From: a virus
Virus record (IMG/VR): IMGVR_UViG_3300045988_131721
Location: 32,001-96,000 of that record
Reading direction: 5' to 3' (one strand)
DNA length: 64,000 bases
The translations under genes and the position numbers were made by a program. Shown here piece after piece: positions 729-54,003 of the stretch. Within the stretch, counting starts at the first letter, position 1. Each line of letters starts with the position of its first letter. The notes below the pieces were generated by a model. The model did not search any database and was not told the DNA's origin. It was given only the letters and a program-made list of their open reading frames with translations.

Positions 729-790
729 AAATAATTAATAAAAGCATTGACAAATAATTTTATTATGATATAATTATTAATATAAGGTGG
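727..790 (+). promoter_or_regulatory. Class I sigma-A-type promoter with upstream AAAATAATTAATAAA element
   Basis: TTGACA 747-752, 16-nt spacer, TGaTATAAT with TATAAT at 769-774, then TAT-TAATATAAGGTGGTGAT leader. AATAATTAATAAA at 730-742 sits at UP-element position. Confidence 0.7.
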
Positions 791-797
791 TGATTAG

Positions 798-907
798 ATG
801 ATTGAAAATGGGAAGATTTAAATTATTCTAGAGAAAATGTGAAATTATTAATTGATATTTGTAATGATTACAAGCCAAGTATTCAAATCAATATGTTTGA
901 GGATTAA
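798..907 (+). pseudogene. Small ORF broken by a 1-nt shift in an A-run just after the start codon
   Basis: ATG 798 reads MIENGKI-stop. The adjacent frame reads KWEDLNYSRENVKLLIDICNDYKPSIQINMFED-stop. One extra A in GAAAATGGG would join them. Further start-less coding-like fragments follow up to about 1000. Confidence 0.3.
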
Positions 908-1077
908 TTACTCCTTTAACTAATGCAGAACCCCTTAAACAAGCATTTACAAGATATTTTGGATATTTCAATAAGAGTAGAGAACAGCTTATATAAATAA
1001 AAATTTTACAATATTTGTGAAGATATGTAACATATTTTTTGTAAATACATAATATATATTAAAAAGGGGTTGATATT

Positions 1078-1989
1078 ATGAATAAAAATACAAGTGTAGC
1101 GATAGATATAGGTAATATTACATCTATTGGTGTGTCAAATGAAAAAGAAGTTGTTATCGAATCAAGAATAAAAGAATATTATGGAGGTATCGATGATTTA
1201 ACATCACATGAAATTTTTGAATTTGACGGTAAAAAATATATAATTAACGAAGGAAAATTTGAATTTGATATTTTGAAATTTAAAAAAGATAATTATTTAA
1301 TGTTACTTTATTATTGTATTAGTAAATGTACTAATTTAAATAATATTAATCTTGTTACTTGTATCCCTGCTAGTAGATATAAATCTCGTAAAGACGAAAT
1401 GAAAGAATTTATAAAAAGTAATAGTAAAAAAACTGTAGTAATTGAAGGAAAGAAAAGAATAATAAACATTGAAAATATAGAAGTCTTTCCAGAGGGGTAT
1501 GCATTCAAAACAGATAAAAATATAATAAATAAAATATCAAAAAATGCCGATACAACATTTATAGACCTTGGAGGATTGACCAATGATATTGTAGAATTTG
1601 ATTCTGATATGAGATTAAAAAATGCTAACAGTATAAATATCGGATTGTTAACATTATATAATTCTGTAAAAGAATATATTAATACAACATATGATTTAGA
1701 TTTATCTATTGAAGAATGTAAAGCAATATTTAATAATGAACAAACATTATTAGTTGATAGTAAATTTGAATATAAAAATGAATTAGTTAAAAGATTTATA
1801 GTTAATTTAATAAATGAAATTAAAGCTGTTTGTCCTAATTTAAAAAATTCAAATATATTCTGTCTAGGTGGTGGAAGTAATATAATAGGTAGTACAATAA
1901 AAAAACTTTATCCACAGACAATTGTTTGTAATGATATAAAATTACAAACAAGATGTTTATTAAATATAGCTAATAAGTTATATAAGTAG
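1078..1989 (+). CDS. parM: Actin-like plasmid-segregation ATPase (ParM/StbA/Alp family)
   Basis: Actin-fold motifs AIDIGN (phosphate 1), VFPEGYA, FIDLGGLTNDIV (phosphate 2) and CLGGGSNIIG (adenosine). 303 aa, with RBS AAAGGGG upstream. Confidence 0.7.
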   Translation: MNKNTSVAIDIGNITSIGVSNEKEVVIESRIKEYYGGIDDLTSHEIFEFDGKKYIINEGKFEFDILKFKKDNYLMLLYYCISKCTNLNNINLVTCIPASRYKSRKDEMKEFIKSNSKKTVVIEGKKRIINIENIEVFPEGYAFKTDKNIINKISKNADTTFIDLGGLTNDIVEFDSDMRLKNANSINIGLLTLYNSVKEYINTTYDLDLSIEECKAIFNNEQTLLVDSKFEYKNELVKRFIVNLINEIKAVCPNLKNSNIFCLGGGSNIIGSTIKKLYPQTIVCNDIKLQTRCLLNIANKLYK

Positions 1990-1999
1990 GTGAGTAATT

Positions 2000-2248
2000 A
2001 TGACAAAGACGATTAGAGAGGTTAGATTGACTTTTAATGAAAAAGATAAAGATATATCTGAATGGTTAAAAGGAAAATCAAGTCAAACAGCTTACATTAA
2101 AGACATTCTTCGATTACACATGCAGATTGAACAATCGTATTTAGCTAATGGCATGAATATAGAACAAAGTGTTTCACGTGAAACTGTAAATGTAGAAGAA
2201 AAGAAACAAGATGAGTTTGATTTTGATTTGAGTGATTTGAATTTATAA
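2000..2248 (+). CDS. Small ribbon-helix-helix-like DNA-binding protein, candidate ParR-type adaptor
   Basis: 82 aa, 10 nt downstream of the ParM-like gene. N-terminus REVRLTFNEKDKDISEWL...AYIKDILRLH fits a beta-strand plus two helices. Acidic tail. Confidence 0.45.
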   Translation: MTKTIREVRLTFNEKDKDISEWLKGKSSQTAYIKDILRLHMQIEQSYLANGMNIEQSVSRETVNVEEKKQDEFDFDLSDLNL

Positions 2249-2275
2249 GGGGATTAATTTCCCCTCTAATTTTTA
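2248..2275 (+). terminator. Rho-independent terminator
   Basis: AGGGGA-TTAATT-TCCCCT hairpin followed by CTAATTTTT. Confidence 0.7.
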
Positions 2276-2309
2276 AAAAGGGAGGATATAAATAATATAA
2301 AATAATAAT

Positions 2310-2362
2310 CATAGGTAATTTTTATAAAGCTTATGTTAATACAGTAATATAAGGTGGTAAAT
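2310..2362 (+). promoter_or_regulatory. Class II phage promoter cassette, copy 1
   Basis: CATAGGTAATTTT, 12 nt, GTTAATA, CAG, TAATATAAGGTGG. Same geometry as 11 other copies. Confidence 0.55.
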
Positions 2363-2450
2363 ATGAAAAACTTAAAGTTTAGGGCATGGGATAAAGAATA
2401 AAAAGAATGGATGGAACAAAAAATTATTATTAATGAAAAGGAGAGAAAGA
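2363..2450 (+). pseudogene. Relic of a YopX-like gene (N-terminus only)
   Basis: MKNLKFRAWDKE-stop. KFRAWDK is the characteristic YopX-family N-terminus. The remainder is out of frame and truncated. Confidence 0.4.
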
Positions 2451-2451
2451 T

Positions 2452-3333: not shown

Positions 3334-3417
3334 AGGATTAAGAAAAGTTAATAAAAATAATTAATAAAAAGTATTGACAATATAAATAAAAGTAAAAACG
3401 AAATATTCACAAATAAA

Positions 3418-3882
3418 TTGGAAGAGTTGATATTGGAGGAAGTAAAGGAAAAAGTTGAAAAATTAAAAGGACTTGATGTATTAGAGGTTACTTTGAAATT
3501 AACATCTGAAAAACTATATGAATATATAGATACGAATATAGGAGATGCTAAACATTTTACATTATTAGCTAAGTTAGATGGAAATTATAATATATCAATA
3601 CTGTATTATTACAAAAATAAGATTATACAAGCAGTGACTACAGAAAAAAATACTGGAGCAATTGACATTTATACTCTATTAAGAATATGTCTCTTACAAA
3701 ATACTAATACACCTTCAGTTGAATTTACAATTCATAAATGTGAACTTCATGGAAAAGAGACATTAGACCCATCTGAACTTTCTGAATTGAACAGCTTATT
3801 AAGTTGCGAACACGAATCTTGCGAATCATGTGATTATTATGATATTGAAGAAGTTAATTTATTAGATGATAAAAATAATTAA
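3418..3882 (+). CDS. Hypothetical protein with C-terminal Cys motif (CEHESCESCDYYD)
   Basis: Long ORF. The start is uncertain: TTG with no clear RBS. A TTGACA at 3374 has no good -10. Confidence 0.45.
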   Translation: MEELILEEVKEKVEKLKGLDVLEVTLKLTSEKLYEYIDTNIGDAKHFTLLAKLDGNYNISILYYYKNKIIQAVTTEKNTGAIDIYTLLRICLLQNTNTPSVEFTIHKCELHGKETLDPSELSELNSLLSCEHESCESCDYYDIEEVNLLDDKNN

Positions 3883-3947
3883 TAAGGGTTATTTTTAATT
3901 AGTTTATGTTAATATATAAGTATAAATTAATAAAGGAGGAATATAAT

Positions 3948-4333: not shown

Positions 4334-4558
4334 ATGAATAAAGCTATTGATTATTTAAAGAGAGAGCTTGAGGTTGAATTAATAGAAGATGGATTTTTCT
4401 ATTCGATATTTGAAAGTGATAAATATAGAGTGAAACTTATATTTAGAGATAGAACATTCAAAAGGGATGGTTATCAAATACACATAAATGATTATTTTGT
4501 TAAATTTACTAAATGGAGTGATTTATACGGAATTGTTGATTTATTTAAAAATAATTAA
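4334..4558 (+). CDS. Hypothetical protein
   Basis: 74-aa ORF with RBS AAGAGG. Ends in the NN-stop junction motif. Confidence 0.55.
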   Translation: MNKAIDYLKRELEVELIEDGFFYSIFESDKYRVKLIFRDRTFKRDGYQIHINDYFVKFTKWSDLYGIVDLFKNN

Positions 4559-4574
4559 TAAAGGAGGAATTATT

Positions 4575-5282: not shown

Positions 5283-5345
5283 AAATAATTAATAAAATAC
5301 ATTGACAAATAATTTAGTTATGATATAATTATTAGTATAAGGAGG
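5281..5345 (+). promoter_or_regulatory. Class I sigma-A-type promoter
   Basis: AATAATTAATAAA 5284-5296, TTGACA 5302-5307, 16-nt spacer, TGATATAAT with TATAAT at 5324-5329, TAT-TAGTATAAGGAGG leader. Confidence 0.75.
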
Positions 5346-9112: not shown

Positions 9113-9697
9113 ATGAAAAGATGTATTAAAATTACAGATAGTAATGAAGTGTGTGATAAAGATATAAAATCGGTAACATTCGTTTGTGAAAATTGTGAAG
9201 TTATTAAAATACCGATTGAAAATTTTACAAAATTAAATATATCAAAAGTAGATAATGAATATTATAATTTTGAATGTGTTATTAAGAAAATAGACAATAT
9301 TGAATATCGTTCACTTACAAATGACTTGAGTCCTTTTAATAGATTGTCTATGTCTGATGATATAGTGAGAATTGAATTAGAACTTATAGATGGCACAATA
9401 AAATTAATACGACCTGTTTGGGAAGGAACGGATTTTAATAATTATTGTCAAGAATCATGTTTATTAAAATTTAATAAAATAAAAATAAATATAAATGAAA
9501 AAGTTAAACAAGCTAAAATAAAAAGAAATATAGGAGAAAAAGCTATAAAAATATTAGATTACATTTACCAAGATACAGGTGTGAATTTTTGTAACGATTG
9601 TGTTTATCATGAGGACTGTAAAAAAATGAAACAAAATAAAGACATTGACGTATGTGATGTATTGTATTTTTTATCAAATTCATATGAAAATAATTAA
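9113..9697 (+). CDS. Hypothetical Cys-rich protein
   Basis: 194-aa ORF with RBS AGGAGGAG. C-terminal CNDCVYHEDC motif. Confidence 0.55.
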   Translation: MKRCIKITDSNEVCDKDIKSVTFVCENCEVIKIPIENFTKLNISKVDNEYYNFECVIKKIDNIEYRSLTNDLSPFNRLSMSDDIVRIELELIDGTIKLIRPVWEGTDFNNYCQESCLLKFNKIKININEKVKQAKIKRNIGEKAIKILDYIYQDTGVNFCNDCVYHEDCKKMKQNKDIDVCDVLYFLSNSYENN

Positions 9698-9750
9698 TAA
9701 AATGCATTGACAAATAACATAGCTGTGATATACTTATTTGTATAAGGAGG
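9687..9750 (+). promoter_or_regulatory. Class I sigma-A-type promoter
   Basis: AATAATTAATAAA 9689-9701, TTGACA 9707-9712, 16-nt spacer, TGATATACT with TATACT at 9729-9734. Followed by an RBS and a 5-codon ORF (9758-9775). Confidence 0.65.
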
Positions 9751-9837: not shown

Positions 9838-9906
9838 ACTTATTGAAATACCTCGACAAAAATAGTAAGGGATTAAAAATAATTAATAAAAGGGAGAGTG
9901 AGAAAT

Positions 9907-10734: not shown

Positions 10735-10821
10735 TTAAAAATAATTAATAAAGGGGTTGATTGAAATGGGGTAAAAATAGATAGGATTGGTGAAACAGGA
10801 GTTAATACATTTGGAAGTAAA

Positions 10822-11544: not shown

Positions 11545-11581
11545 TAAGAAAATAATTAATAAACTTAGGAGGGTGTGTATT

Positions 11582-13143: not shown

Positions 13144-13209
13144 AATAATTAATAAATTTTATAATACAAAGAGGGAGGAATCAATCCTCCTAGAAAGGAG
13201 AATAAAGAT

Positions 13210-15328: not shown

Positions 15329-16804
15329 ATGTATTATAATGAGGAACATAAAAATATTGTAGAGAAAAGAGGTGATGGTTATACCTATATCGGGAGTTAT
15401 AAATGTAACGAAGTAACATTAGATGGCAAAAATAAAAATGGCAAACAAAATTATATAAGAGTAAAATGTCCGTATTGTGGTAGTGAGTATGACATAAAGT
15501 TAAGTAGTTTTAAATCGGGTAGTCAATGTGCTAATTGTTGTAATAAATATGAAAACTCGTTTGCTTATCATATTCAAATTGAATTAGAAGAATCCCTTAA
15601 TAAATATTGGGATTGGAGCAATAATGAAGAAAATCCATATTTAATATATAAAAATAGTACTAAAAAAGTTAATATAAAATGTACTAAAATTAATTATCAT
15701 GGTGATTATATTATCACACCTAATAGTTTTTATAGAGGCACAAGATGTCCGTATTGTGTTGGTAAAAAAGTTCATCCTAAAGATTCATTTGGTCAATGGT
15801 TGATTGCCACTTATGGAGATAATGCAATAGAAAAATATTGGTCACCTAAAAATATAGTTGACCCATTTGAAATTTCACCACAAAGTAATAAAAAAGTTTG
15901 GATATTATGTCAAGAAAAAGACTATCATAATGATAATGGTGGATATTTGGTAATCCCGTATAGTTTTTATAGAGGCACAAGATGTCCTTATTGTAGTCGT
16001 ACAAATGGTAAAGTGCATCCAAAAGATAGTTTCGGGCAATGGTTGATAAATGTATTCGGCGAAGATGCGATAGATAAATATTGGTCATCTAAAAATAATG
16101 TTAACCCATTTGAAATAGCTCCAAATACTCATAGAAAAATTTGGATACTGTGTCAAGATAAAAATTATCATAATAATGAAGGAGGTTATAAAACGACAGC
16201 CGAAAAATTTCATCATGGTAGAAGATGTCCATATTGCAATAAAAATAGTGGTAAAGTACATCATAAAGATAGTTTTGGTTCGCTATATCCAGAAAAGGCT
16301 AAGTATTGGAGTAAGAATAATAAAAAGTCATCTTTTGAGATAAGTCCTAAAAGCAATCGAAAACATAAATTCATATGTGAAAAATGTGGTGAAGAATTTG
16401 AAAGAAGTTTAGATAATTTAAATGTAAAAGATTTAGGTGTAGTTTGCAATGATTGTAGAAGTTCACAATTAGAGCAGTTAACAAAAGAAATATTAGACAA
16501 ATACTACATAAAATATTACAGAGAATATAGTTATTCGGACTTAATAGGTGTAGGTAATGGATATTTGAGATTTGACTTCTATTTACCAGATTATAATACT
16601 CTAATTGAATGTCAAGGACAGCAACATGAAGAATGGATAGAGACATGGATAACAAAAGATAATTTTGAGTTGATAAAAATACATGACCAACGTAAGAAGG
16701 ATTATTGTAAAAGGAATGGAATAAAACTAATAGAAATATGGTATTATGAAATAAATGATGTAGAAGAAATTATAAAGAAAGAATTAAATCTAGAAAATAA
16801 TTAA
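15329..16804 (+). CDS. Homing-endonuclease-like protein, family 2 (repeated treble-clef zinc ribbons plus C-terminal Vsr/PD-(D/E)XK-like nuclease)
   Basis: Four or more repeats of KDSFG...YWS.KN...PFEISP.S..K.W..C....YH.....RCPYC. C-terminus LRFDFYLPDYNTLIECQGQQH. Paralog of 19999-21252. Confidence 0.6.
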   Translation: MYYNEEHKNIVEKRGDGYTYIGSYKCNEVTLDGKNKNGKQNYIRVKCPYCGSEYDIKLSSFKSGSQCANCCNKYENSFAYHIQIELEESLNKYWDWSNNEENPYLIYKNSTKKVNIKCTKINYHGDYIITPNSFYRGTRCPYCVGKKVHPKDSFGQWLIATYGDNAIEKYWSPKNIVDPFEISPQSNKKVWILCQEKDYHNDNGGYLVIPYSFYRGTRCPYCSRTNGKVHPKDSFGQWLINVFGEDAIDKYWSSKNNVNPFEIAPNTHRKIWILCQDKNYHNNEGGYKTTAEKFHHGRRCPYCNKNSGKVHHKDSFGSLYPEKAKYWSKNNKKSSFEISPKSNRKHKFICEKCGEEFERSLDNLNVKDLGVVCNDCRSSQLEQLTKEILDKYYIKYYREYSYSDLIGVGNGYLRFDFYLPDYNTLIECQGQQHEEWIETWITKDNFELIKIHDQRKKDYCKRNGIKLIEIWYYEINDVEEIIKKELNLENN

Positions 16805-16856
16805 TAAACCTATTGACAAATAATTTGGTTATGATATAATGTATTTATAGGAAGGT
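16794..16856 (+). promoter_or_regulatory. Class I sigma-A-type promoter
   Basis: AATAATTAATAAA 16796-16808, TTGACA 16813-16818, 16-nt spacer, TGATATAAT with TATAAT at 16835-16840. Confidence 0.75.
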
Positions 16857-17205: not shown

Positions 17206-17235
17206 AAATAATTAATAAAAAGGAGAAATATTAAT

Positions 17236-18389: not shown

Positions 18390-18428
18390 AATATTAATAA
18401 AAATAATTAATAAAGGAGAGATGTGTAT

Positions 18429-19571: not shown

Positions 19572-19633
19572 ATTGAAAATAATTAATAAAATTATAAAGA
19601 GGGATTAATTCCCTCTAGGAAGGAGTTGGTAAT

Positions 19634-19931: not shown

Positions 19932-19998
19932 AATATATTAGTTATAAGATATAAATAAAAATAACAAATTAAAAATAATTAATAAAAAGGTGATTGAG

Positions 19999-21252
19999 AT
20001 GTATCAGAATGAGGAACATAAGAGAGGAGTAATTGAAAGGGGAGATGGTTACGAATATATAGGAAGTTATAAATTAAATGAAGTGACTATAGATGGTAAG
20101 AATAAAAAACATAATGCTACTTATATTAGAGTTAAATGTCCATATTGCAGAAGTGAATATGACGTGGCTTTGAGCAGTTTTGTAGGAAAATTAAAAACAA
20201 AATGTACCAATTGTTGCAATACTTATGAAAATTCTTTTGCTTATTATATTGAAAAAGAATTAAATGAAAAATTAGAGGATTATTGGGACTTTGAGGAGAA
20301 TGGAAGAAGAGGTATAAATCCTTATTGTGTAACTAAACATAATAGCAGTATTAAAATTTCAATTTGGTGTAAAAATAAGTGGTATCATGGTAGTTATTTT
20401 ACTACCACATCACATTTTACAGAAAATAAAAGATGCCCTTACTGTGCTAATCAAAAGGTTCACCCGTTAGATAGTTTTGGACAATATTTAATTAATACCT
20501 ATGGAAAAGATGCCATAAAAAAATATTGGAGTGATAAAAATATAAATTCCCCTTTTAAAATAAGCAAAGGAAGTGGAAAACCAATATATTTATATTGTCA
20601 AGATAAAGATTATCATAATGATTATGGAGGTTATTCTGTAGTTCCATATCAATTTATGAGAGGGGATAGATGTCCATATTGTACACATAAATCGGGAAAA
20701 GTTCATCCTAAAGATTCATTTGGAAACCTGTATCCCGAAAAGGCTAAATATTGGTCACCCAATAATAAAAAATCACCTTTTGAAGTAACTTCTAGAAGTG
20801 GTAAAAAATATAAATTTATTTGTGAAAAATGTGGTGAAGAGTTTGAAAGAGATTTAGCGAATCTAAATAGAAATAATATTGGAATTGTGTGTAAAAAATG
20901 TAATTCTTCACAATTAGAAACAAAAACTAAAAATATATTAGAAAAACATAATATTAAATATGAAATAGAAAAATCATTTTTTAATTTATATGGTGTAGGT
21001 GGTAAATTATTGAGATTTGATTTTTATTTATCAGATTATAATTTACTAATTGAATGTCAAGGAACTCAACATAAATCATGGCAGAAAACTTGGGTGACAA
21101 AAGAAGATTTTGAAAGACAATTAGAACATGACAAAAGAAAGAAACAATATGCTAAAGAAAATAATATCGATTTATTAGAAATTTGGTATTATGATATAGA
21201 TAATATAGAAAATATATTGATGCATAGATTGAATTTAAATAAAAATAATTAA
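19999..21252 (+). CDS. Homing-endonuclease-like protein, family 2 (zinc-ribbon repeats plus Vsr/PD-(D/E)XK-like nuclease)
   Basis: N-terminus MYQNEEHKRGVIERGDGYEYIGSY, zinc-ribbon repeats, C-terminus LRFDFYLSDYNLLIECQGTQH. Collinear with 15329-16804. Confidence 0.6.
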   Translation: MYQNEEHKRGVIERGDGYEYIGSYKLNEVTIDGKNKKHNATYIRVKCPYCRSEYDVALSSFVGKLKTKCTNCCNTYENSFAYYIEKELNEKLEDYWDFEENGRRGINPYCVTKHNSSIKISIWCKNKWYHGSYFTTTSHFTENKRCPYCANQKVHPLDSFGQYLINTYGKDAIKKYWSDKNINSPFKISKGSGKPIYLYCQDKDYHNDYGGYSVVPYQFMRGDRCPYCTHKSGKVHPKDSFGNLYPEKAKYWSPNNKKSPFEVTSRSGKKYKFICEKCGEEFERDLANLNRNNIGIVCKKCNSSQLETKTKNILEKHNIKYEIEKSFFNLYGVGGKLLRFDFYLSDYNLLIECQGTQHKSWQKTWVTKEDFERQLEHDKRKKQYAKENNIDLLEIWYYDIDNIENILMHRLNLNKNN

Positions 21253-21270
21253 TAAAAGGAGAGATGTGTA

Positions 21271-25100: not shown

Positions 25101-25322
25101 ATGGAAAATATATTAGAGTTTCAAATGAGAAAAGAGCAGGAATATTTAAATAATTTGTTAGATAGTATAAATAATTTATTAAATAATGAATTTGAATTTA
25201 GCGAAGATACTAAGGCGCAATTAGAAATTGAGAAAAAAATAATATTGGCAAAATTAAGCGTATGGAAAACAGTAGAGAGGGCTGTAGAAGAATTAAAGAA
25301 CGATATTATATTTGAAAAATAA
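25101..25322 (+). CDS. Hypothetical protein
   Basis: 73-aa ORF with RBS AAGGAGG. Confidence 0.5.
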   Translation: MENILEFQMRKEQEYLNNLLDSINNLLNNEFEFSEDTKAQLEIEKKIILAKLSVWKTVERAVEELKNDIIFEK

Positions 25323-25348
25323 TTAATAACAAAATAGGAGTTGATATT

Positions 25349-27558: not shown

Positions 27559-27566
27559 TTAATAAA

Positions 27567-27810: not shown

Positions 27811-27840
27811 TTGAAAATAATTAATAAAGGGGTGATAAAT

Positions 27841-31214: not shown

Positions 31215-31238
31215 AAATAATTAATAAGGAGTGATTTT

Positions 31239-32649: not shown

Positions 32650-32844
32650 TTAAACATTAAAAGATTAGGGTTAAAACTAACAAAAGAGGAGTCTAAATTA
32701 TTAAAAGAATATAGCAAATATAAAGTAGAGGATTTGATAGGAATAGAAACTGAAATACAAGTTGTAACGGATATTATAGAGTTTATACTGCTTGGATTTC
32801 CATTAGAATATTCTATTAAATTTTTATTGGAAGAAAATAATTAA
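32650..32844 (+). pseudogene. Start-less coding remnant (64 codons ending LLEENN-stop)
   Basis: Open frame LNIKRLGLKLTKEESKLLKEYSKYKVEDLIGIETEIQVVTDIIEFILLGFPLEYSIKFLLEENN. No ATG or GTG and no RBS. Ends in the junction motif. Confidence 0.3.
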
Positions 32845-32849
32845 TAAAC

Positions 32850-35964: not shown

Positions 35965-36267
35965 ATGTTATTAAAAATATATGGAGCGATTACAATACTA
36001 AATATAATATTAGGAGAAAAACTTAGATTTGATTTAAAGAAAAATACAAAATTTGTTGAAGAGTTGGTAACACATCAATTAGGAAGAGTAATATATAACA
36101 GATATATCAAACGAAGCAAATTAATAATAAATTCTATATTACCTATTTATAATTTATTTTCTGTATTTGAAAGCAACATGTTTTTTATATTCAATATATT
36201 TAGTACCAAGGAAGGTAATGACGCAATGTTAAAAGTATTAAAAGATTCTGAAAATGAAAATAATTAA
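35965..36267 (+). CDS. Hypothetical protein, partly hydrophobic
   Basis: 100-aa ORF coupled to the upstream stop (TAAATG). Confidence 0.45.
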   Translation: MLLKIYGAITILNIILGEKLRFDLKKNTKFVEELVTHQLGRVIYNRYIKRSKLIINSILPIYNLFSVFESNMFFIFNIFSTKEGNDAMLKVLKDSENENN

Positions 36268-36283
36268 TAAAGGAGGATTTATT

Positions 36284-39237: not shown

Positions 39238-39300
39238 AAATAATTAATAAATTAAAAAAACTATTGACATTAATCACCTCATGTGTTATTATCTATATAA
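39238..39300 (+). promoter_or_regulatory. Class I sigma-A-type promoter
   Basis: AATAATTAATAAA 39239-39251, TTGACA 39263-39268, 17-nt spacer, TGTTATTAT with TATTAT at 39286-39291. Confidence 0.6.
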
Positions 39301-42578: not shown

Positions 42579-42602
42579 AAATAATTAATAAAAATTTTAA
42601 TT

Positions 42603-43523: not shown

Positions 43524-43583
43524 CATAGGTAATTTTTATAAAAGTTTTGTTAATATAGTAATATGAAGGAGGTGATAATGTGA
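43524..43583 (+). promoter_or_regulatory. Class II phage promoter cassette, copy 10, with ATG-TGA start-stop
   Basis: CATAGGTAATTTT, 12 nt, GTTAATA, TAG, TAATATGAAGGAGGTGATA, ATG TGA (43578-43583). Confidence 0.55.
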
Positions 43584-43669: not shown

Positions 43670-43696
43670 AAATAATTAATAAAAAGGAGCGATGTT

Positions 43697-46433: not shown

Positions 46434-46452
46434 ATTAAAAATAATTAATAAA

Positions 46453-46815: not shown

Positions 46816-46822
46816 ATATAAT

Positions 46823-47545
46823 ATGAATATAAAAGTAGGAGATAAAGTTAGAATAAAAGAAGATTTGAGTGAATGTGAATTTGGATATTGTGGTTATATG
46901 GAAGAGTTTGCAGGTAAAGAGACAACTGTAATAAGTACTTTTGGTAAAGGTGTGATAAAGTTAGATATAGATGAACAAGTCTGGGATTGGTCAGAAAATG
47001 TATTAGAATTAATAGAGGAAGGAAAAACAATGAAAATGAAAAGAATAGATTATATATTAAATGCCAGAGATAACATACAAGCGATACTAGATGAAACAGT
47101 ACTAGATTGCGATATATGTCCAGCTTCTTGTGAGAACTGTAATGGTAATTGCGAGTTTCATTATAAAAAATATCTAAATGAAGAAATAGAAGTAAATGAA
47201 TCAGATTTAAAAGACGTTGGGGTTAAAGAAGAATTAGATACAAAAGAGAATATAGTTAACGACACTGTAAATCCATTTATGGAAGAATATGAAAAAATAG
47301 TAATGGATACAATGGAATTGTGTAAACGTAAAAATAAAGATTATGGTAATGCAACAGATGAATCATTTAAACAATTCGGTGATGTAAGTTATTTGGTAAG
47401 ATGTTTTGATAAATGGAGTAGAATAAATACATTATTAAAAAATAGAAAAGCCGAGGTATCTGAATCCCTAGAGGACAGTTTATTAGACCTTAGTAACTAC
47501 TTATTCCTTTGGGTTACAAGTAGAAGATTAAAAGAAAATAATTAA
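46823..47545 (+). CDS. Two-domain protein: N-terminal GDKVRIKEDL module plus C-terminal DUF1599-like (nucleotide-modification-associated) domain
   Basis: C-terminus KNKDYGNATDESFKQFGDVSYLVRCFDKWSRINTLL...EDSLLDLSNYLFLW resembles DUF1599. The N-terminal module is shared with 49219 and 50426. Confidence 0.5.
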   Translation: MNIKVGDKVRIKEDLSECEFGYCGYMEEFAGKETTVISTFGKGVIKLDIDEQVWDWSENVLELIEEGKTMKMKRIDYILNARDNIQAILDETVLDCDICPASCENCNGNCEFHYKKYLNEEIEVNESDLKDVGVKEELDTKENIVNDTVNPFMEEYEKIVMDTMELCKRKNKDYGNATDESFKQFGDVSYLVRCFDKWSRINTLLKNRKAEVSESLEDSLLDLSNYLFLWVTSRRLKENN

Positions 47546-47619
47546 TCAATGCAAGGTGATGTTATGAGCAAAAAATTGATAGGATAGGAGAAAAAAGATT
47601 TAATAATTTTGGGAGCGAA

Positions 47620-48705: not shown

Positions 48706-49203
48706 GTGATTATTATACCAAATAAAAGTAATAAAATAGGTGCTAAATTTGAAAATAGATTAACAAAACAATTTGAAAAATATAGAAAAGAAGGAAAGGC
48801 TTATATATTTAAGATTCCAACTGAATTTATAGTATTAAGAAAAGGAGCTAAAATCGTATCGGCTTTTCCTAAAAAACAATCACCTTGTCTGGATTACATA
48901 GGTATATTACCTAATGGAAAAAGCATAGTATTTGAGGCTAAAACAACAGCTAACAAAACTTCTTTTCCTCTTTCAAATATAAAAGACTATCAATATGATT
49001 TAATTGATGAGATTCAAAACTATGCAAATAATGTATTCTTTATAATAGAATTTAGAGAATTTAAAGAAGTGTATTTAGTGAGTGGGCTAGCAATCAAAAA
49101 GTTTAAAGAAAATAACAAGCGTAAGAGTATACCATATAAAGAGTTTAAAAATATAGGTATATTAATGAACGATTTAGATGTATTAAAATATATAAATTAT
49201 TAA
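48706..49203 (+). CDS. recU: RecU-type Holliday junction resolvase
   Basis: GAKFENRLTKQFEKYRKEGKAYIFKIPTEF...CLDYIGILPNGKSIVFEAKTT matches the RecU pattern (fE..i......A.i.K.pT...DY.G...G..i.FeAK.T). The start codon context is unusual. Confidence 0.7.
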   Translation: MIIIPNKSNKIGAKFENRLTKQFEKYRKEGKAYIFKIPTEFIVLRKGAKIVSAFPKKQSPCLDYIGILPNGKSIVFEAKTTANKTSFPLSNIKDYQYDLIDEIQNYANNVFFIIEFREFKEVYLVSGLAIKKFKENNKRKSIPYKEFKNIGILMNDLDVLKYINY

Positions 49204-49218
49204 TAAAGGAGAGATGTA

Positions 49219-49959: not shown

Positions 49960-49983
49960 AAATAATTAATAAATTTTATAACG

Positions 49984-50041
49984 GATAGGTAATTTCTTTA
50001 TGCTATCCGTTAATATATAAGTATAGAAAGGACGTGATAAA
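49984..50041 (+). promoter_or_regulatory. Class II phage promoter cassette, copy 12 (variant, box embedded in a hairpin)
   Basis: GATAGGTAATTTC, 12 nt, GTTAATA, TAT, AAGTATAGAAAGGACGTGA. AACGGATAG...CTATCCGTT form an inverted repeat. Confidence 0.45.
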
Positions 50042-51185: not shown

Positions 51186-51204
51186 TTGATAAGGGGTGAA
51201 CAAT

Positions 51205-52003: not shown

Positions 52004-52044
52004 GGGATAGATGTTAATTTAAAACACCTATCCCTTTATTTATG
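52004..52044. terminator. Bidirectional terminator at the convergence point of the two arms
   Basis: GGGATAG...CTATCCC, with an inner TGTT/AACA extension. Flanked by an A-run on the left (T-run for the minus strand) and TTTATTT on the right. Confidence 0.6.
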
Positions 52045-52052
52045 TCTGTTTT

Positions 52053-52111
52053 TACAGGTATAAACTATCAATGAAGAAATTTAAACGCCTTAGAATCGAT
52101 TTTACAGCGTC
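52053..52111. repeat. Terminator-adjacent repeat element, copy C
   Basis: TACAGGTATAAACTATCAATGAAGAAATTTAAACGCCTTAGAATCGATTTTACAGCGTC, homologous to 27598-27656. Confidence 0.6.
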
Positions 52112-52135
52112 ATTATTTCTGCAATACTCGGAAAT

Positions 52136-52975
52136 TTATATAATTTCTAAATATTTTTTATTGACAAACCCATAATCTGTATTTGTATAAACAGATACCC
52201 ATCCATTCAATGAATATCCTATAGTTACAATTTCACCTTTCTTTAATACAAATTTAACTTTACCTAAATTACCATTTTTATCTGGTCGTGTATCTCTAAC
52301 ATTTAAAGTTGTACAATTAATTACTCTTGCTTGAACATTATAAGCCTTCTTGTCTTCTATTGTCTTATCAACAACTTTTTCTTCTCCAATTACACTGTTA
52401 CCTTTTCCATTGGTACAATTTCTTATGTTTGATTCTTTTAATTTTCCTATCATATAGTTATAACAATCTAATTTAAATTGTTCCCATTGAGATTTATGAT
52501 TTACAAAGTATCTTGGACAAATTTTACCTGTAACATCGTAATGTCTTATAAAATCTTTTCTAGGGTCTAACCCGTATAATTTAGCTAACCAAGCACCTGT
52601 TTTAATCATTGAAACATATTCTTTGTCAGTGTAATGGTCGTCTGAACCTGTTGTTGCACATTCTACTCCTACACTATAAGCATTTGCACTATTTGTTGTA
52701 TAAGCTATTTCGTTAAATGGAATTATATGATATATTTCTCCTTCAAGTCCCATAACTAAATGAGAACTAGCGTATATATATCTACCATTTACTCTATATC
52801 CATTAGCTACAACGTTAGAAAAATAACTTACTGTATTTTTAGCAGAAACATCATGTTGTCCTGTAAAATGCCATGCTATTTTAGTTGTTCTTCTTCTTTT
52901 AGTTCCAGGTCTCCCATATTTATTGATTTTCATAAATTTTTCTATCATTTCTGGTTTTTGTACCATATTAATCAA
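52136..52975 (-). CDS. Endolysin: N-acetylmuramoyl-L-alanine amidase (Amidase_2/PGRP type) with C-terminal SH3-like wall-binding domain
   Basis: KIAWHFTGQ...SSHLVMGLEGEIYHIIP...NAYSVGVECA. C-terminus LNVRDTRPDKNGNLGKVKFVLKKGEIVTI...NGWVSVY. Confidence 0.8.
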   Translation of the reverse strand: MINMVQKPEMIEKFMKINKYGRPGTKRRRTTKIAWHFTGQHDVSAKNTVSYFSNVVANGYRVNGRYIYASSHLVMGLEGEIYHIIPFNEIAYTTNSANAYSVGVECATTGSDDHYTDKEYVSMIKTGAWLAKLYGLDPRKDFIRHYDVTGKICPRYFVNHKSQWEQFKLDCYNYMIGKLKESNIRNCTNGKGNSVIGEEKVVDKTIEDKKAYNVQARVINCTTLNVRDTRPDKNGNLGKVKFVLKKGEIVTIGYSLNGWVSVYTNTDYGFVNKKYLEII

Positions 52976-52982
52976 CTCCTTT

Positions 52983-53021
52983 ATAAAATAAAAAGAGAGC
53001 AGATAAAATCCACTCTCTTTT
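52983..53021 (-). terminator. Hairpin terminator/attenuator between the holin and endolysin genes
   Basis: AAAGAGAG, 13-nt loop, CTCTCTTT. On the minus strand it is followed by TTTTATTTTAT, just before the endolysin RBS. Confidence 0.5.
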
Positions 53022-53180
53022 GGCTTTGGTTTATATTTAAATTATAAGAAATTTATAAATTAATCTTACTTATAATTTAAATAGTAGTATTATAAAATAA
53101 TTAATAAAGTTTTTGGAATATAATTTTGACAAAATTTATCCTTACTTTATTATAACACTTCACATCTTATTTTACAATAA

Positions 53181-53447
53181 TTATTTTTCGTCTTTATTAA
53201 TTAAATTTCTATAAGCTTCATACAATCCTGTACTTGCTAATCCTGTAATTAAACCACTTAAAATTACATTAAAATCATAACTTTGAGCATTAACTATTGC
53301 AACAAGCATACCTACAATTCCCATAATTAAAGGTATATATCTATTTGGTATTTTAGGTATTGAAGTTTTAATTATATATCCAATCACCAAACAAAATAAC
53401 ATCACACCACCATTTATTAAACTCATGTATAAATCTAAATCAATCAT
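53181..53447 (-). CDS. Holin
   Basis: 88 aa, two or three membrane helices, charged C-terminus KDEK. Adjacent to the endolysin. Confidence 0.7.
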   Translation of the reverse strand: MIDLDLYMSLINGGVMLFCLVIGYIIKTSIPKIPNRYIPLIMGIVGMLVAIVNAQSYDFNVILSGLITGLASTGLYEAYRNLINKDEK

Positions 53448-53737
53448 TATTCATTTCCTCCTTTTTCATGTTGTTTCATATCTCTAATATCCATTTTTAA
53501 ATCACTCATATCATGTTTTAAGTCATCAATTTTTACATTTGTATCTCTTACTTCATTACTTATTTCTTTTATCGTTAATGAGAACTCATTTACAGTTTTA
53601 TGAAATTCTTCTACTGAAGTTTTATATAAGTCTCTATTTTGATTATCCTCATTTAAAACTTGTTGTATTAAAATCCATACCAATATTACAAAAACTCCCA
53701 TTGCACCATAATTACTCAACACCTCCAATAAATCCAT
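53447..53737 (-). CDS. Membrane-anchored coiled-coil protein of the lysis cassette
   Basis: N-terminal helix GAMGVFVILVWILIQQVL, then a heptad-like DLKHDMSDLKMDIRDMK. Preceded on its own strand by AATAATTAATAAA plus an RBS. Confidence 0.5.
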   Translation of the reverse strand: MDLLEVLSNYGAMGVFVILVWILIQQVLNEDNQNRDLYKTSVEEFHKTVNEFSLTIKEISNEVRDTNVKIDDLKHDMSDLKMDIRDMKQHEKGGNE

Positions 53738-54003
53738 TATTAGCACCACCTTTCTTTATTAATTATTTATTATGGGTATACAACTTTAAGTGTGGAAAGT
53801 CTAGAAACATTAGTTGCATGTCCCAAATCTGTCTAGCATTTAAATCCTCTTTGTTCCTCAGTAGCAAGAATCTATCTTTTTCAAAAACCCGTATTTTTTA
53901 TTAAATTTCTTCTGTGTCCTTTTCTTTTTACTTCTTCTTTTGGGAATATTTGTTTCACTTTCAAATGGATAATCCACTATTTTTACTTGCATTCCATTAA
54001 AAA

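Follow-up and report, generated by a model that had tools for sequence, protein, structure and literature searches.

The 64,000-nt window analyzed here, that is, the whole stretch of DNA under study, derives from an uncultivated 135-kb phage found in human metagenomes. Recombination genes in the window encode a Sak4-type annealase, a PD-(D/E)XK exonuclease and a RecU resolvase, and 10 or more homing endonucleases are present. A 13-letter A/T motif, AATAATTAATAAA, is found at ca. 40% of the phage gene junctions and also at most junctions without tight coupling, and its orientation follows the direction of transcription. Thirty exact copies lie in the window, 29 on the plus strand and one on the minus strand (53755-53767), at precisely the coordinates given in an earlier note on this DNA. 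The near-copies that it reported at 3874, 31216 and 47537 are present as well, each with one mismatch. Copies are listed below; they are exact unless marked as one-mismatch. L numbers denote related loci, and SD denotes a Shine-Dalgarno ribosome-binding sequence.

730..742 (+): 1 nt past stop of HNH homing-endonuclease paralog 6-728; 4 nt to -35 of 12/12 sigma-A promoter 747-774
3356..3368 (+): 22 nt past stop of 2452-3333; TTGACA 5 nt on; 443-nt insert here in L129, flanked by a 39-nt repeat beginning with the motif
3874..3886 (+), one-mismatch: last A to G; overlaps stop of 3418-3882
4550..4562 (+): supplies stop 4556-4558 of ORF 4334-4558; GGAGG directly 3', before gene 4575-5282
5284..5296 (+): 1 nt past stop of 4575-5282; UP-consensus score 13/15; 5 nt to -35 of 12/12 sigma-A promoter 5302-5329
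9689..9701 (+): stop of 9113-9697; 5 nt to -35 of promoter 9707-9734
9878..9890 (+): after class-II-like promoter and ATG-TAA scar; SD, then Rha-family gene 9898-10734
10740..10752 (+): 5 nt past stop of 9898-10734; upstream of HNH paralog 10822-11544; L129 homology ends exactly at 10752
11551..11563 (+): 6 nt past stop of HNH paralog 10822-11544; SD next, then ClpP-like gene 11582-12724
13144..13156 (+): abuts stop of 12727-13143; hairpin 13174-13190 3', pairing SD-like GGAGG
16796..16808 (+): stop of family-2 HNH gene 15329-16804; 4 nt to -35 of 12/12 promoter 16813-16840; homology with L128 and L129 begins at 16787
17207..17219 (+): 1 nt past stop of 17038-17205; SD next; 231-nt insert just 5' of it in L129
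17659..17671 (+): after class II promoter and ATG-TAA scar; SD, then Rha-family gene 17673-18389; L129 homology ends at 17671
18402..18414 (+): 12 nt past stop of 17673-18389; GGAGAGATGTGTA leader, gene from ATG 18429
19578..19590 (+): 6 nt past TAG of 18423-19571; hairpin 19598-19616 3'
19974..19986 (+): after class II promoter and ATG-TAG scar; SD, then family-2 HNH gene 19990-21252
21244..21256 (+): stop of 19990-21252; SD, then Sak4-like annealase gene 21271-22359
25318..25330 (+), one-mismatch: last A to C; overlaps stop of 25101-25322; breakpoints at 25315-25334
27554..27566 (+): stop of amylase-domain gene 26500-27558; 11-bp hairpin 3'; in L126, HNH cassette inserted between two copies of window 27548-27566
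27816..27828 (+): after class II promoter and the two terminal remnants (N and C) of a family-2 HNH gene, deleted here but whole in L121 and L124; SD, then DnaB gene
30409..30421 (+): primase gene 29414-30442 reads through in open frame; SD, then HNH paralog 30435-31214, missing in L125 and L123, where a single motif copy is left
31216..31228 (+), one-mismatch: last A to G, creating AAGGAG; right border of HNH cassette 30435-31214
32836..32848 (+): stop of 64-codon ORF; class II promoter 2 nt on; upstream of HNH paralog 32908-33690
36259..36271 (+): stop of 35965-36267; SD next; 824-nt HNH insert immediately 5' of it in L130 and L132
36540..36552 (+): starts left member of 41-nt repeat (motif, RBS and ATGATG); gene between the repeats is 36569-36925, without counterpart in L130
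36931..36943 (+): starts right member of 41-nt repeat; SD, then ThyX gene 36961-37698
39239..39251 (+): 1 nt past TAG of HNH paralog 38461-39237; 12 nt before TTGACA of promoter 39264-39292; in L122 and L124, which lack this paralog, the upstream gene leads directly into the motif
42580..42592 (+): 1 nt past stop of HNH paralog 41796-42578; class II promoter 11 nt on; homology with 8 relatives begins at 42571-42586
43671..43683 (+): after class II promoter and ATG-TGA scar; SD, then NrdD gene 43697-45955
46440..46452 (+): 6 nt past stop of NrdG-like gene 45933-46433; class II promoter 1 nt on; in L131, L142 and L143, window 46430-46452 is present twice, on either side of a 782-nt HNH insert
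47537..47549 (+), one-mismatch: overlaps stop of 46802-47545; upstream of HNH paralog 47620-48342
49195..49207 (+), one-mismatch: overlaps stop of RecU gene 48706-49203; within 47-nt repeat bounding an insert in L133
49961..49973 (+): 1 nt past stop of dUTPase-like gene 49219-49959; class II promoter 11 nt on
53096..53108 (+): orientation wrong for the surrounding minus-strand block; 17 nt before plus-strand 11/12 sigma-A promoter 53126-53153; segment 53007-53176 containing it missing in most relatives
53755..53767 (-): SD, then minus-strand gene 53749-53447; homology with 7 relatives ends at 53773

Frequency and anatomy of the junction element

Compared with the 30 copies observed, 0.19 were expected from dinucleotide shuffles of the window and 0.17-0.40 from Markov models of order 1, 3 and 5 trained on it. 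Models trained only on the ca. 5.4 kb of junction DNA, where 23 copies were observed, predicted 0.05-0.19. The enrichment, for which the earlier note had proposed shuffled controls, thus holds against every null model tried, including the intergenic-only one. On the plus strand of the window, 29 copies had no mismatch, 11 had one (5-6.5 expected) and 46 had two (ca. 50 expected). This spectrum shows no decay tail of mutated copies, mismatched copies being barely in excess, which indicates that the motif is either exact or absent. As previously noted, the single minus-strand copy precedes a minus-strand gene. In the minus-strand late-gene block of relative L108, four of five copies are on the minus strand, and 145 of 147 distinct copies family-wide lie on the G-rich coding strand. 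Overall, ca. 150 distinct copies were found across ca. 20 related metagenomic loci, and the same A/T string is repeated ca. 60 times per genome.

With five further conserved nucleotides (W-T-R-A-A) on its 5' side, the motif makes up an 18-nt junction element, WTRAA-AATAATTAATAAA, of which it is the core. The upstream stop codon is either overlapped by the motif or located 0-6 nt before it, and most copies have a stop-to-motif distance of -9, -5 or 0 to +6 nt. The idea that the motif usually supplies this stop has to be abandoned, as only 7 of 30 window copies and 46 of 156 copies family-wide do so and the stop more often lies 0-6 nt upstream. A multi-frame stop is borne out in so far as TAA stops occur in two frames, but not in three, and a stop is supplied in only ca. 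29% of copies. Downstream, the motif is followed by an SD sequence (about half), a consensus sigma-A promoter, a promoter of a second, lineage-specific class or a hairpin (SD 75, sigma-A promoter 17, class II promoter 17, others 38). Instead of the 2-20 nt spacing proposed for the RBS, the SD starts 0-4 nt after the motif.

In sigma-A promoter contexts, the distance between motif and -35 hexamer is strictly 4-5 nt. The proposed UP (upstream promoter element) position ahead of promoters was correct, with 11-13 matches to the 15 positions that the UP consensus (PMC2425493) specifies. Scores of at least 11 are reached by 2% of window 22-mers and a score of 13 by 0.08%. All six of the best plus-strand sigma-A promoters have the motif upstream. 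Five window copies seem to be start-associated, each located behind a promoter and an ATG-stop leader; comparison with relatives identified the leaders at 27816 and 43671 as deletion scars of genes that the relatives keep. The duplicated leaders described earlier are real: 36540-36574 and 36931-36965 constitute a 41-nt direct repeat, the gene between them being missing from L130, and the GGAGAGATGTGTA leaders are also present.

Homology breakpoints and mobile cassettes

The earlier note had proposed checking whether gene gain and loss breakpoints between related genomes coincide with the motif, and such an association was found. Of 88 homology-breakpoint clusters, 21 are no more than 15 nt away from a copy, whereas this applies to 2.2% of positions, a ca. 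10-fold enrichment over position-random expectation. Breakpoints occurred at 18 of 21 motif junctions compared with 14 of 36 motif-less junctions (Fisher p = 0.0008). Junction length confounds this comparison; when the motif-less set was restricted to spaced junctions, the figures were 18 of 21 and 6 of 12 (p = 0.044). At 10752, 17671, 27566 and 46452, the final base of the motif is also exactly the final base of homology. In other cases homology starts 0-10 nt 5' of the first motif base, at 3356, 16787, 18393, 19572, 21235, 27548, 36257, 39238, 42571-86 and 46430.

Ordinary genes, homing-endonuclease genes and 60-nt promoter units vary in presence between close relatives, with edges at the motif. 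Gained or lost units often leave one motif copy on each side, and homing-endonuclease gene inserts are flanked by duplicated copies. Comparison of filled and empty sites revealed a motif-cassette-motif arrangement at 27548-66, 46430-52, 3356-94 and 36540/36931. Other junction repeats bound insertions equally well, namely RBS/start repeats of 12-47 nt at 43126-45, 43566-89, 25084-100 and 32890-902, and several HNH genes have been inserted without any motif (51177/51982, 32902/33689). Crossover thus occurs often at the motif but does not depend on it. Motif copies adjoining homing-endonuclease genes (11 of 30) showed no clear excess over the expectation from ca. 28% of junctions. Of the suggested recombination and homing hotspot that makes genes exchangeable cassettes, the breakpoints and cassette borders stand, but the motif is not a unique border and a role as homing-endonuclease target is unsupported.

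A sister lineage carries its own version of the linker, AATATAGA-AATTAATAA, with 14 and 8 copies in two contigs. Their sites are of the same kinds: copies flank a promoter cassette on both sides, for instance, and the same HNH family has the linker at its 3' end. Genome-wide, this lineage has replaced the 5' half of the linker.

Candidate roles of the motif

The earlier note offered four possible roles, chose none and is partly supported overall. The best reading, which we put forward tentatively, is that the 13-mer is the invariant core of an intercistronic linker of ca. 18 nt, lineage-specific and constrained, which bounds mobile cassettes in a PeSL-like manner and is kept as expression punctuation. 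Recombination alone does not explain the rarity of mutated copies, which counts against this reading and calls for some sequence-specific selection. At orthologous junctions, the core mismatched at 8 of 494 positions (1.6%), compared with 10.4% and 10.1% in the 20-nt flanks, even though RBS and promoter sequence lies in the right one; at 10% divergence, ca. 75% of neutral 13-mers would be expected to carry a change.

The motif is also more exact than the adjacent SD sequences, beyond the normal demand of alpha-CTD or ribosome contacts, which points to a specific reader and favors other explanations. The motif could be bound by a protein in the manner of a stoperator or act as a signal at the RNA level, and a phage-specific promoter is a further candidate reading. 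Mycobacteriophage stoperators, start-associated sequences and the PeSL cassettes of T4-type phages are all close anatomical parallels. Phage-specific promoter, stoperator, start-associated sequence and PeSL readings were all absent from the earlier note; the translational enhancer, RNase site and regulator site that it listed are possible roles. The linker reading is supported by the position of the motif and the variety of what follows it, the tight conservation of its core and the lack of excess two-mismatch copies, the breakpoints and cassette borders, the recombination genes, the promoter link and the version in the sister lineage.

Under the linker reading, the element would close the 3' side of a gene unit, with the next SD and gene, promoter cassette or hairpin joined directly on. 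Because the same A/T string recurs ca. 60 times per genome, we infer that crossovers take place at the linker through short homology. The enzymes acting there would be those of the phage itself, the Sak4-type annealase, PD-(D/E)XK exonuclease and RecU resolvase, and breaks made by its homing endonucleases would add to these crossovers. An additional function as expression punctuation would preserve the linker: it offers the upstream ORF a TAA stop in each of two frames, abuts the next SD and places a near-consensus UP element 4-5 nt from the -35 of the strongest promoters. PeSL-mediated shuffling has been described (PMC2839356); the motif would work like the PeSL cassettes of T4-type phages, but reduced to a promoter-independent core. 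Crossover at linkers would thus allow cassettes to be inserted, deleted and swapped without harm to neighbouring genes, and the motif of this phage may be a linker of the same kind as that of the modular theory of phage evolution.

Occurrence of the motif in the window and its phage

The 13-nt motif is a constrained, lineage-specific junction element that is tied to and co-oriented with the 3' ends of genes and where several kinds of cassette meet. All 30 exact copies claimed in the earlier note, as well as its three near-copies, were confirmed in place. Enrichment, which the note had wished to see compared with null models, held under every model run: dinucleotide shuffles yielded 0.19 expected copies compared with 30 observed, Markov models of orders 1, 3 and 5 yielded 0.17-0.40, and models trained on junction DNA alone 0.05-0.19 compared with 23 observed in 5.4 kb. 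On the plus strand, 29 copies are exact, 11 carry one mismatch (5-6.5 expected) and 46 carry two (ca. 50 expected), and since two-mismatch copies are not in excess, the motif has no tail of decaying copies. The core is extended on its 5' side to an element of ca. 18 nt by W-T-R-A-A at positions -5 to -1, with A at -1 in 29 of 30 copies, while the position most frequently altered in junction near-copies is the final A of the 13-mer. With 29 copies in 52 kb, the motif is found at ca. 40% of junctions.

Orientation is nearly uniform, as 145 of the 147 distinct copies from the window and related loci lie on the coding, G-rich strand. L108, in which a relative's late genes run on the minus strand, has four of its five copies on that strand, at junctions of minus-strand genes. 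The misoriented window copy at 53096 belongs to an inverted unit of motif and promoter (53096-53153), located in a segment that is missing from most relatives. Inspection of the extended motif against its reverse complement revealed no dyad symmetry, and no RNA self-pairing was found (folding energy 0.0 kcal/mol). The unpaired probability was 0.57 for the motif region and 0.52 for random 13-nt windows, and the whole window gave no Rfam hit at the gathering threshold. A structured RNA, terminator or RNase III-type site was rejected on these grounds: no self-pairing, no Rfam hit and a region no more open than random windows.

A compositional accident, or a by-product of stop codons and A-rich RBS flanks, might be expected in a genome of 25% G+C, given that the motif is pure A/T, contains three TAA and lies where the genome is richest in A/T. 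Chance and composition are ruled out, however, as dinucleotide, Markov (orders 1-5) and intergenic-only models each predict at most 0.4 copies (0.05-0.4) compared with the 30 seen. Two-mismatch copies are not in excess, and relatives of like G+C whose proteins are 44-71% identical carry no copy. Among the bacterial matches listed, no genome has the motif plus a Shine-Dalgarno sequence (SD) more than once; with one occurrence per bacterial stretch listed, a general host feature was not seen. The probability that we leave to a compositional origin is practically negligible.

The window has a G+C content of 25%, with genes on the plus strand up to ca. 52.1 kb and on the minus strand beyond, and the sign of the G-C skew flips at the same point. 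The plus-strand block encodes functions in replication (ATP-dependent ligase, DnaB-like helicase, primase, DNA polymerase), recombination (Sak4-like annealase, PD-(D/E)XK exonuclease, RecU) and nucleotide metabolism (ThyX, NrdD, NrdG, dUTPase), together with DNA methyltransferases, a DndB-like protein, a CPSF73-like beta-CASP nuclease, an actin-like ParM/Alp protein and two Rha-family regulators; the genes of the minus-strand block are lysis and tail-fibre-like genes. Two N6/N4 DNA methyltransferases, the DndB-like protein and an alpha-amylase-domain protein within the replication block (8252-9040, 37890-38456, 39304-40428, 26500-27558) may serve in DNA modification or anti-restriction.

Genes of the plus-strand block referred to below
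1078-1989, actin-like ParM/Alp segregation protein
9898-10734, Rha-family regulator
13414-15300, beta-CASP/RMMBL nuclease of 628 aa
17673-18389, Rha-family regulator

Megablast against GenBank phages returned no match, and the DNA polymerase is at most 44% identical to that of any GenBank phage. Several metagenome assemblies in ENA and Logan, of human origin to judge by their sample names, contain the same polymerase protein on contigs that reach 113 kb, and IMG/VR has at least nine related contigs of 133-140 kb. GGAGG-type SDs, promoters of the TTGACA/TATAAT consensus, a GH25-SH3 endolysin and the anaerobic NrdD point to a low-G+C Gram-positive anaerobe as the likely host. Based on the ParM/Alp gene, the two Rha-family regulators and an ORF in the related locus L016 (1-650) that resembles a tyrosine recombinase on a by-eye reading only, this 135-kb phage with its full replication module may be able to persist as a plasmid-prophage; no integrated copy was found, nor any repressor homologue among the scanned window proteins.

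Sequences on either side of the motif

Distinct contexts were collected from the window and related loci, 147 in one count and 156 in the other. On the 5' side, a long ORF terminates within the motif in 46 of 156 contexts, via TAA at motif positions 7-9 or 3-5, and in ca. 50 contexts an ORF ends 0-6 nt ahead of it. Only two copies are located deep inside genes. The multi-frame stop considered in the earlier note has to be abandoned in its three-frame version, because one frame of the motif is open and is read through by ten ORFs. The 3' side varies. An SD begins 0-4 nt past the motif in 75 of 147 contexts, a sigma-A -35 hexamer follows at exactly 4 or 5 nt in all 17 sigma-A contexts, a second, lineage-specific promoter-like unit (class II; tcATAGGTAAtttt-N12-13-GTTAATA) follows in 17, and hairpins and variant promoters account for 38. 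For half of the copies, the nearest start codon is more than 25 nt away. Hairpins stand downstream of three of the 30 window copies.

Hairpins directly 3' of the motif
13174-13190, hairpin
19598-19616, hairpin
27567-27594, hairpin

In two of these three hairpins, an SD-like GAGGGA is paired with TCCCTC just 5' of the true SD. Read on the opposite strand, hairpin and T-rich motif complement together score as an intrinsic terminator, and the three junctions may thus stop antisense transcription.

The motif stands upstream of all six best plus-strand sigma-A promoters, three of which match the consensus at 12 of 12 positions with an extended -10 and three at 11 of 12 with TTGACA. Conversely, a sigma-A promoter follows seven of the 30 window copies and, strictly defined, 17 of 147 contexts (ca. 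20% with variants). Relative to these promoters, the motif spans about -41 to -53, ending 4-5 nt before the -35 hexamer, and motif plus 5' extension span about -59 to -38. The earlier note's placement of the motif at the UP-element (upstream promoter element) position was borne out: in the five window promoters scored, motif and extension agree with the UP consensus (NNAAAWWTWTTTTNNAAAANNN, as cited by PMC2425493) at 11-13 of its 15 specified positions, a score of at least 11 being reached by 2% and of at least 13 by 0.08% of window 22-mers. The sigma-A promoters are paralogous 60-nt cassettes, so the fixed spacing of 4-5 nt, seen in 17 of 17 sigma-A contexts, may have been inherited and not separately selected. 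Unlike the motif, UP elements are degenerate and found only with promoters, which they stimulate through alpha-CTD, whereas ca. 80% of motif copies have no sigma-A promoter behind them.

The class II repeat, in which tcATAGGTAAtttt-N12-13-GTTAATA is followed by taatATAAGAGGTGAT and a start codon, is restricted to the window lineage, with 4-11 copies per locus and none in the sister lineage (contigs 3300045988_132453 and _149468) or in more distant relatives. Its use probably requires a sigma factor encoded by the phage. In one case (35503-35505), the upstream stop codon TAG forms part of ATAGGTAA. L061 (IMGVR_UViG_3300025030_000039, 429 kb), an unrelated jumbo phage, has a repeated motif of its own, ATAGGAAATTTAAC, whose 12-mers occur in 6-7 copies in 13 kb and which is similar to the -35-like part of the class II promoter.

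Class II promoter-like repeats on the plus strand (at least 11, these and others)
17563-17595, plus strand, class II repeat
19872-19903, plus strand, class II repeat
27672-27703, plus strand, class II repeat
32850-32880, plus strand, class II repeat
35500-35535, plus strand, class II repeat
42602-42635, plus strand, class II repeat
43523-43555, plus strand, class II repeat
46453-46485, plus strand, class II repeat
49983-50015, plus strand, class II repeat

Five window copies (9878, 17659, 19974, 27816 and 43671) seemed to be tied to a downstream start and not to an upstream stop. Each of them is located behind a class II promoter, an RBS and then an ATG-stop or very short ORF. Mini-ORFs of this kind take the forms ATG-TAA, ATG-TAG, ATG-TGA and TTG-TAA.

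Start-stop mini-ORFs with a strong RBS behind class II promoters
9845-9850, mini-ORF
17619-17624, mini-ORF
19927-19932, mini-ORF
35559-35564, mini-ORF
42652-42657, mini-ORF
43577-43582, mini-ORF
46503-46508, mini-ORF

At 27567-27816, the first 12 and the last codons are left of a family-2 HNH (homing-endonuclease) gene that is intact in the related loci L121 and L124. At 43566-43589, the window has lost a gene of ca. 1.3 kb that L121 and L125 retain; the loss took place between two copies of AAGGAGGTGATAATGTGAATGATAGA. From this comparison, at least two of the five leaders are seen to be deletion scars, left by recombination between repeated RBS/start sequences. The mini-ORFs might also be ribosome-binding stabilisers of the 5' end. 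Since at least two of the copies that look start-associated sit behind such scars, the simplest rule places the motif behind the 3' end of a present or former gene.

Conservation among relatives and mosaicism at the junctions

At orthologous junctions of relatives that are 80-99% identical, the 13-mer differs at 8 of 494 positions (1.6%) compared with 10.4% and 10.1% for the two 20-nt flanks, the right one of which contains the RBS and promoter elements. This conservation holds whether an SD, a promoter or a hairpin comes next. Further, the HNH paralogs beside many copies are only 70-76% identical to each other, yet the adjoining motifs are identical, which excludes neutral inheritance from old duplications.

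Loci of the window lineage carry one copy per 1.4-4.4 kb, almost all on the gene strand, while neither copies nor a comparable repeat were found in distant relatives (L127, polymerase 44% identical; L134-L141, NrdD 71%). The two contigs of the sister lineage (NrdD 92% identical) contain 0 and 1 copies of the window motif. They carry an element of their own, AATATAGA-AATTAATAA(GG), whose 13-mer ATAGAAATTAATA is present in 14 and 8 copies in 61 and 35 kb. Compared with each other (AATAATTAATAAA in the window, ATATAGAAATTAATAA in the sister lineage), the two versions have AATTAATAA in common and differ in the 5' half. The sister version follows gene ends (among them the 3' end of the same HNH family), abuts SDs and precedes a terminator, and at one junction it stands on both sides of a promoter cassette; its copies mostly stand 3' of the sigma-A promoter, within the 5' UTR. 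After the window gene at 31239-32102, positions 32145-32160 read ATATAGAAATTAATA, a relic copy of the sister junction motif and the counterpart of an intact sister-type copy at L144 2491-2506. A literature search for the exact 13-mer returned no relevant paper. Two kinds of element are known precedents, 13-mers at phage junctions that are oriented and lineage-specific, and repeats at junctions through which modules are shuffled; new here are a pure A/T, near-invariant element at ca. 40% of junctions that is indifferent to the downstream feature, and its sister-lineage allele.

Compared with its relatives, the window is a dense mosaic of differences. The coincidence of breakpoints with the motif, another point that the earlier note had put forward for checking, was found: 21 of 88 breakpoint clusters lie within 15 nt of an exact copy, a zone comprising 2.2% of positions. 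As breakpoints favour gene boundaries anyway, junctions were scored separately. Motif junctions were breakpoints in at least one relative in 18 of 21 cases and motif-less junctions in 14 of 36 (p = 0.0008). Junction length is a confounder here: when only motif-less junctions longer than 22 nt are taken for comparison, the counts are 18 of 21 and 6 of 12 (p = 0.044). In these counts the relatives are non-independent samples that cover parts of each related genome, and BLAST homology edges are precise to a few bases. The edges frequently end at the final motif base or begin a few bases ahead of the first.

Several alleles illustrate this arrangement. Window 27548-27566 is duplicated in L126, where its two copies enclose an HNH cassette that has its own promoter, and in L131, L142 and L143 an HNH cassette is flanked by two copies of 46430-46452. 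At the 3356 site, a small gene is enclosed by 39-nt repeats that start with the motif. The gene at 36569-36925, missing from L130, lies between 41-nt repeats comprising motif, RBS and ATGATG. HNH insertions directly 5' of the motif are located at 36257 and 38447-39237. Other insertions are bounded by repeated RBS/start regions of 12-47 nt (43126-45, 43566-89, 25084-100, 32890-902), the near-copy repeat 49182-49228 also borders an insertion, and HNH insertions without any repeat are seen as well (51177/51982). Because insertions are also bounded by non-motif repeats or by none, the general process is recombination between any short repeated junction signal, of which the motif is the commonest. 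Genes for an exonuclease, a Sak4-type annealase and RecU are present in the window.

Free-standing homing endonucleases of two families make up ca. 17% of the plus-strand block, and their presence differs between close relatives. The eight paralogs of family 1 share 70-76% nucleotide identity and all end in ...YNYEVEIDD. An additional GIY-YIG gene is present in L280.

Homing-endonuclease genes of the window
6-728, HNH family 1 (eight paralogs of 240-260 aa)
10822-11544, HNH family 1
30435-31214, HNH family 1
32908-33690, HNH family 1
38461-39237, HNH family 1
41796-42578, HNH family 1
47620-48342, HNH family 1
51196-51984, HNH family 1
15329-16804, DUF4379 treble-clef HNH family (two members)
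19990-21252, DUF4379 treble-clef HNH family

The motif was not supported as a target or private property of these endonucleases: 11 of 30 copies touch an HNH gene, which is near expectation, no motif follows three of the eight paralogs of family 1, two HNH insertions are motif-free at both edges, and the site persists in occupied alleles. Relatives also carry insertions at precise points inside genes, of 1.2-1.75 kb in the DNA polymerase gene (window 34715/34717) and of 302 bp in nrdD (window 44955/44956). One or both are found in L124, L126, L125, L142, L143 and L145, with the window allele uninterrupted at both points. Probably they represent group I introns, which may or may not contain an endonuclease gene.

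The motif as a proposed linker, and other readings

The explanation that we rank first, with a confidence somewhat short of even, is that the motif is a linker in the sense of the modular theory, similar to the promoter-early stem-loops (PeSLs) of T4-type phages (Arbiol et al. 2010, PMC2839356; Comeau et al. 2014, PMC4122927) and reduced to a promoter-independent A/T core. Such a linker would be retained since it also supplies stop codons, an SD-adjacent spacer and an UP element. PeSL cassettes likewise have a repeated, conserved junction sequence with the upstream stop codon in an A/T-rich stretch leading to the SD/ATG of the next gene; here, the stop is 0-6 nt before or inside the motif and the SD 0-4 nt after it in 75 of 147 contexts. 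In both systems, small variable genes are flanked, and indel or replacement edges between close relatives fall within the repeats, as repeat-gene-repeat in one allele and a single repeat in the other (motif-cassette-motif and single-motif alleles here, with differences at 18 of 21 motif junctions). PeSLs have been proposed as linkers for short-homology recombination, and units of motif and sigma-A promoter act likewise, including the one inverted unit at 53096-53153. In contrast, PeSLs are composites of ca. 50-100 bp with a sigma-70 promoter and a G/C-rich stem-loop, whereas the constant part here is a pure A/T string of 13-18 nt without stem-loop. A strong sigma-70-type early promoter follows only seven of 30 window copies (ca. 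20% of all copies have a sigma-A promoter, and about half are joined to an SD within operons), and no stable terminator or attenuator is formed (0.0 kcal/mol; hairpin after 3 of 30). The host type also differs, probably Gram-positive here and enterobacterial for PeSLs. Circular cassette DNA is a described product of recombination between PeSL repeats. The weak point of the linker reading is that the motif is better conserved than the adjoining SDs, which suggests a sequence-specific reader.

Integron attC sites are also associated with recombination and stand at the 3' end of each of a series of variably present cassettes, in one orientation. They are imperfect inverted repeats of 57-141 bp that are recombined by an adjacent IntI as folded single strands. 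The motif, in contrast, has neither dyad symmetry nor self-complementarity, cassettes often have their own promoters, and unrelated repeats, among them RBS/start repeats, serve equally well as borders. Integron-like, site-specific cassette insertion is unlikely for these reasons.

The sequence-specific reader could be a DNA-binding protein, and we consider it improbable, though not to be neglected, that the motif is a stoperator-like site for a putative phage-encoded repressor or regulator. Bound to the asymmetric 13-mer, the protein would block transcription in an orientation-dependent manner at dozens of junctions and occlude the UP/-35 region of strong early promoters, resulting in prophage silencing or in timing of the lytic programme. 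The anatomical match to the stoperators of Cluster A phages (L5 gp71, Bxb1 gp69; PMC3029335, PMC9283540, PMC6550527) is close to point for point. These are asymmetric sites of 13 bp with 24-34 copies per ca. 50 kb (ca. 25-35 in round terms), mostly in short intergenic spaces or overlapping stop/start codons, in a single orientation relative to transcription and with a subcluster-specific consensus that differs in one half-site between sister groups. The motif occurs in 30 copies in 64 kb (29 of them in 52 kb), 145 of 147 copies are co-oriented on the coding strand, two lie deep in genes and the sister version differs in its 5' half only. Conservation that is independent of context and above that of the neighbouring SD is also in line with a bound site, as are the temperate or plasmid hints, i.e. 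the L016 tyrosine recombinase read by eye, the ParM/Alp gene (1078-1989) and the two Rha-family regulators. However, no repressor candidate was found in the window. Some stoperators overlap the core of the early lytic promoter, whereas the motif ends 4-5 nt 5' of the -35 hexamer (-41 to -53). Real stoperator sets tolerate 1-2 deviations and contain G/C, with repressor binding and elongation block proven; the motif is pure A/T and almost invariant. Further, a DNA site explains neither the abutment of the SD at 0-4 nt nor the tight proximity to stop codons, and own replication and nucleotide-metabolism genes along with many homing endonucleases are more typical of virulent phages. Among elements whose function is equally unexplained, the nearest are the start-associated sequences (SAS) of Cluster K mycobacteriophages (Pope et al. 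2011, PMC3203893; PMC12699233), for which no function had been explained by 2025. Both are asymmetric 13-bp repeats of one lineage that occur in one orientation at gene junctions, are mostly exact (60-88% for SAS), sometimes include the upstream stop codon and are concentrated in the non-structural part of the genome. SAS, however, include the SD itself (GGGATAGGAGCCC), 3-7 bp from the start codon, and number 11-19 per genome with no link made to mosaic breakpoints, whereas the SD follows the pure A/T motif and half of the motif copies precede a promoter or hairpin.

A signal in RNA is considered just as improbable, and again not to be neglected. Here, AAUAAUUAAUAAA would mark cistron boundaries in polycistronic mRNA, either as an endonucleolytic processing or gene-end site that leaves the SD near the 5' end or as a ribosome standby or enhancer element 5' of the SD. 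Strict orientation with transcription and the SD 0-4 nt after the motif in 75 of 147 contexts are as expected, and the core shared with the sister lineage, AATTAATAA, abuts the SD even in 5' UTRs after sigma-A promoters. Terminators, where present, usually follow the motif, which is therefore transcribed, and the scarcity of plus-strand terminators lets long transcripts be expected. Promoter-proximal leaders extend only ca. 4-6 nt before the SD on a by-eye reading, which cleavage at the motif would mimic internally. RNase E-type enzymes prefer RAUUW, which the motif centre AAUUA fits, and the phage itself encodes a CPSF73/aCPSF-type beta-CASP RNase. Nevertheless, half of the copies have no adjacent SD, copies 5' of promoters could act on read-through RNA only, one L016 copy lies just past a strong terminator, and no Rfam match supports the signal. 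The motif region differs little in structure from random 13-nt windows (0.57 and 0.52 unpaired), and 13 exact bases exceed the needs of known bacterial RNases and ribosome contacts. An antisense RNA as reader was rejected, because only two reverse copies exist (53096; L108 10274) and neither is conserved among relatives. A special form of the RNA reading, which we regard as a long shot, takes up two features of the motif, its 3'-terminal AAUAAA and its place behind almost all independently expressed genes. Polycistronic transcripts would be cut at each motif by the phage nuclease, or by a host RNase that a phage factor directs there, yielding monocistronic mRNAs with the SD at the 5' end. Transcripts are cut at gene ends by CPSF73, Ysh1, Integrator-11 and FttA. 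Apart from three top entries, unnamed or labelled Cas14, the closest solved structures to the phage nuclease are archaeal and human CPSF73, Ysh1, Integrator-11, TTHA0252 and FttA, with neither RNase J nor the DNA-repair enzymes SNM1/Artemis named among the matches listed; a search for KH or other RNA-binding domains in its N-terminus (180 aa) gave only weak zinc-ribbon and HNH_3 hints. Both this form and the RNA reading as a whole are weakened by the nuclease allele at the same position in L128 and L129, which is just 37-38% identical in relatives with an identical motif. Very improbable, too, is a promoter for a phage-directed RNA polymerase or sigma factor in T4 late or T7 style, with the recognition element in the extended motif and transcription starting at the 3' A residues of the motif just before the SD. 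Exact, oriented, lineage-specific intergenic motifs directly 5' of genes are usually phage promoters, a pattern that the motif fits in its exactness, orientation and lineage restriction; the other promoters of this phage have a -10 just ca. 11 nt before the SD, and a tandem arrangement with sigma-A promoters is common in large phages. The position of the motif, however, is set by the upstream stop codon and not by the start, copies precede terminators and hairpins, a 0-nt spacing to the SD would force the start site inside the motif, and the sole -10-like hexamers (AAAAAT, TAAAAA) are poor ones. The 64-kb window yielded no gene for an RNA polymerase or sigma factor, and together with nine sigma-A and at least 11 class II promoters the total would exceed 50 for 72 genes.

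If the motif were a protein-binding or RNA-processing site, stoperator-like or gene-end signalling would be extended to phages of apparent low-G+C Gram-positive hosts, and the gene-end reading, if true, would represent a bacterial-virus analogue of 3'-end formation defined by cleavage sites. In annotation, gene boundaries and sites of earlier gene insertion can be read reliably from the motif, and its contexts suggest compact promoter, UP-element and SD parts able to function in very A/T-rich hosts. How phage mosaics swap modules without wrecking the neighbours is an old question. In this lineage, recurrent in human metagenomes, cassettes of genes, homing endonucleases and promoters have their edges at one natural, standardised connector, and the genome-wide swap of one half of the element in the sister lineage makes both its concerted evolution and the mechanism of exchange testable.
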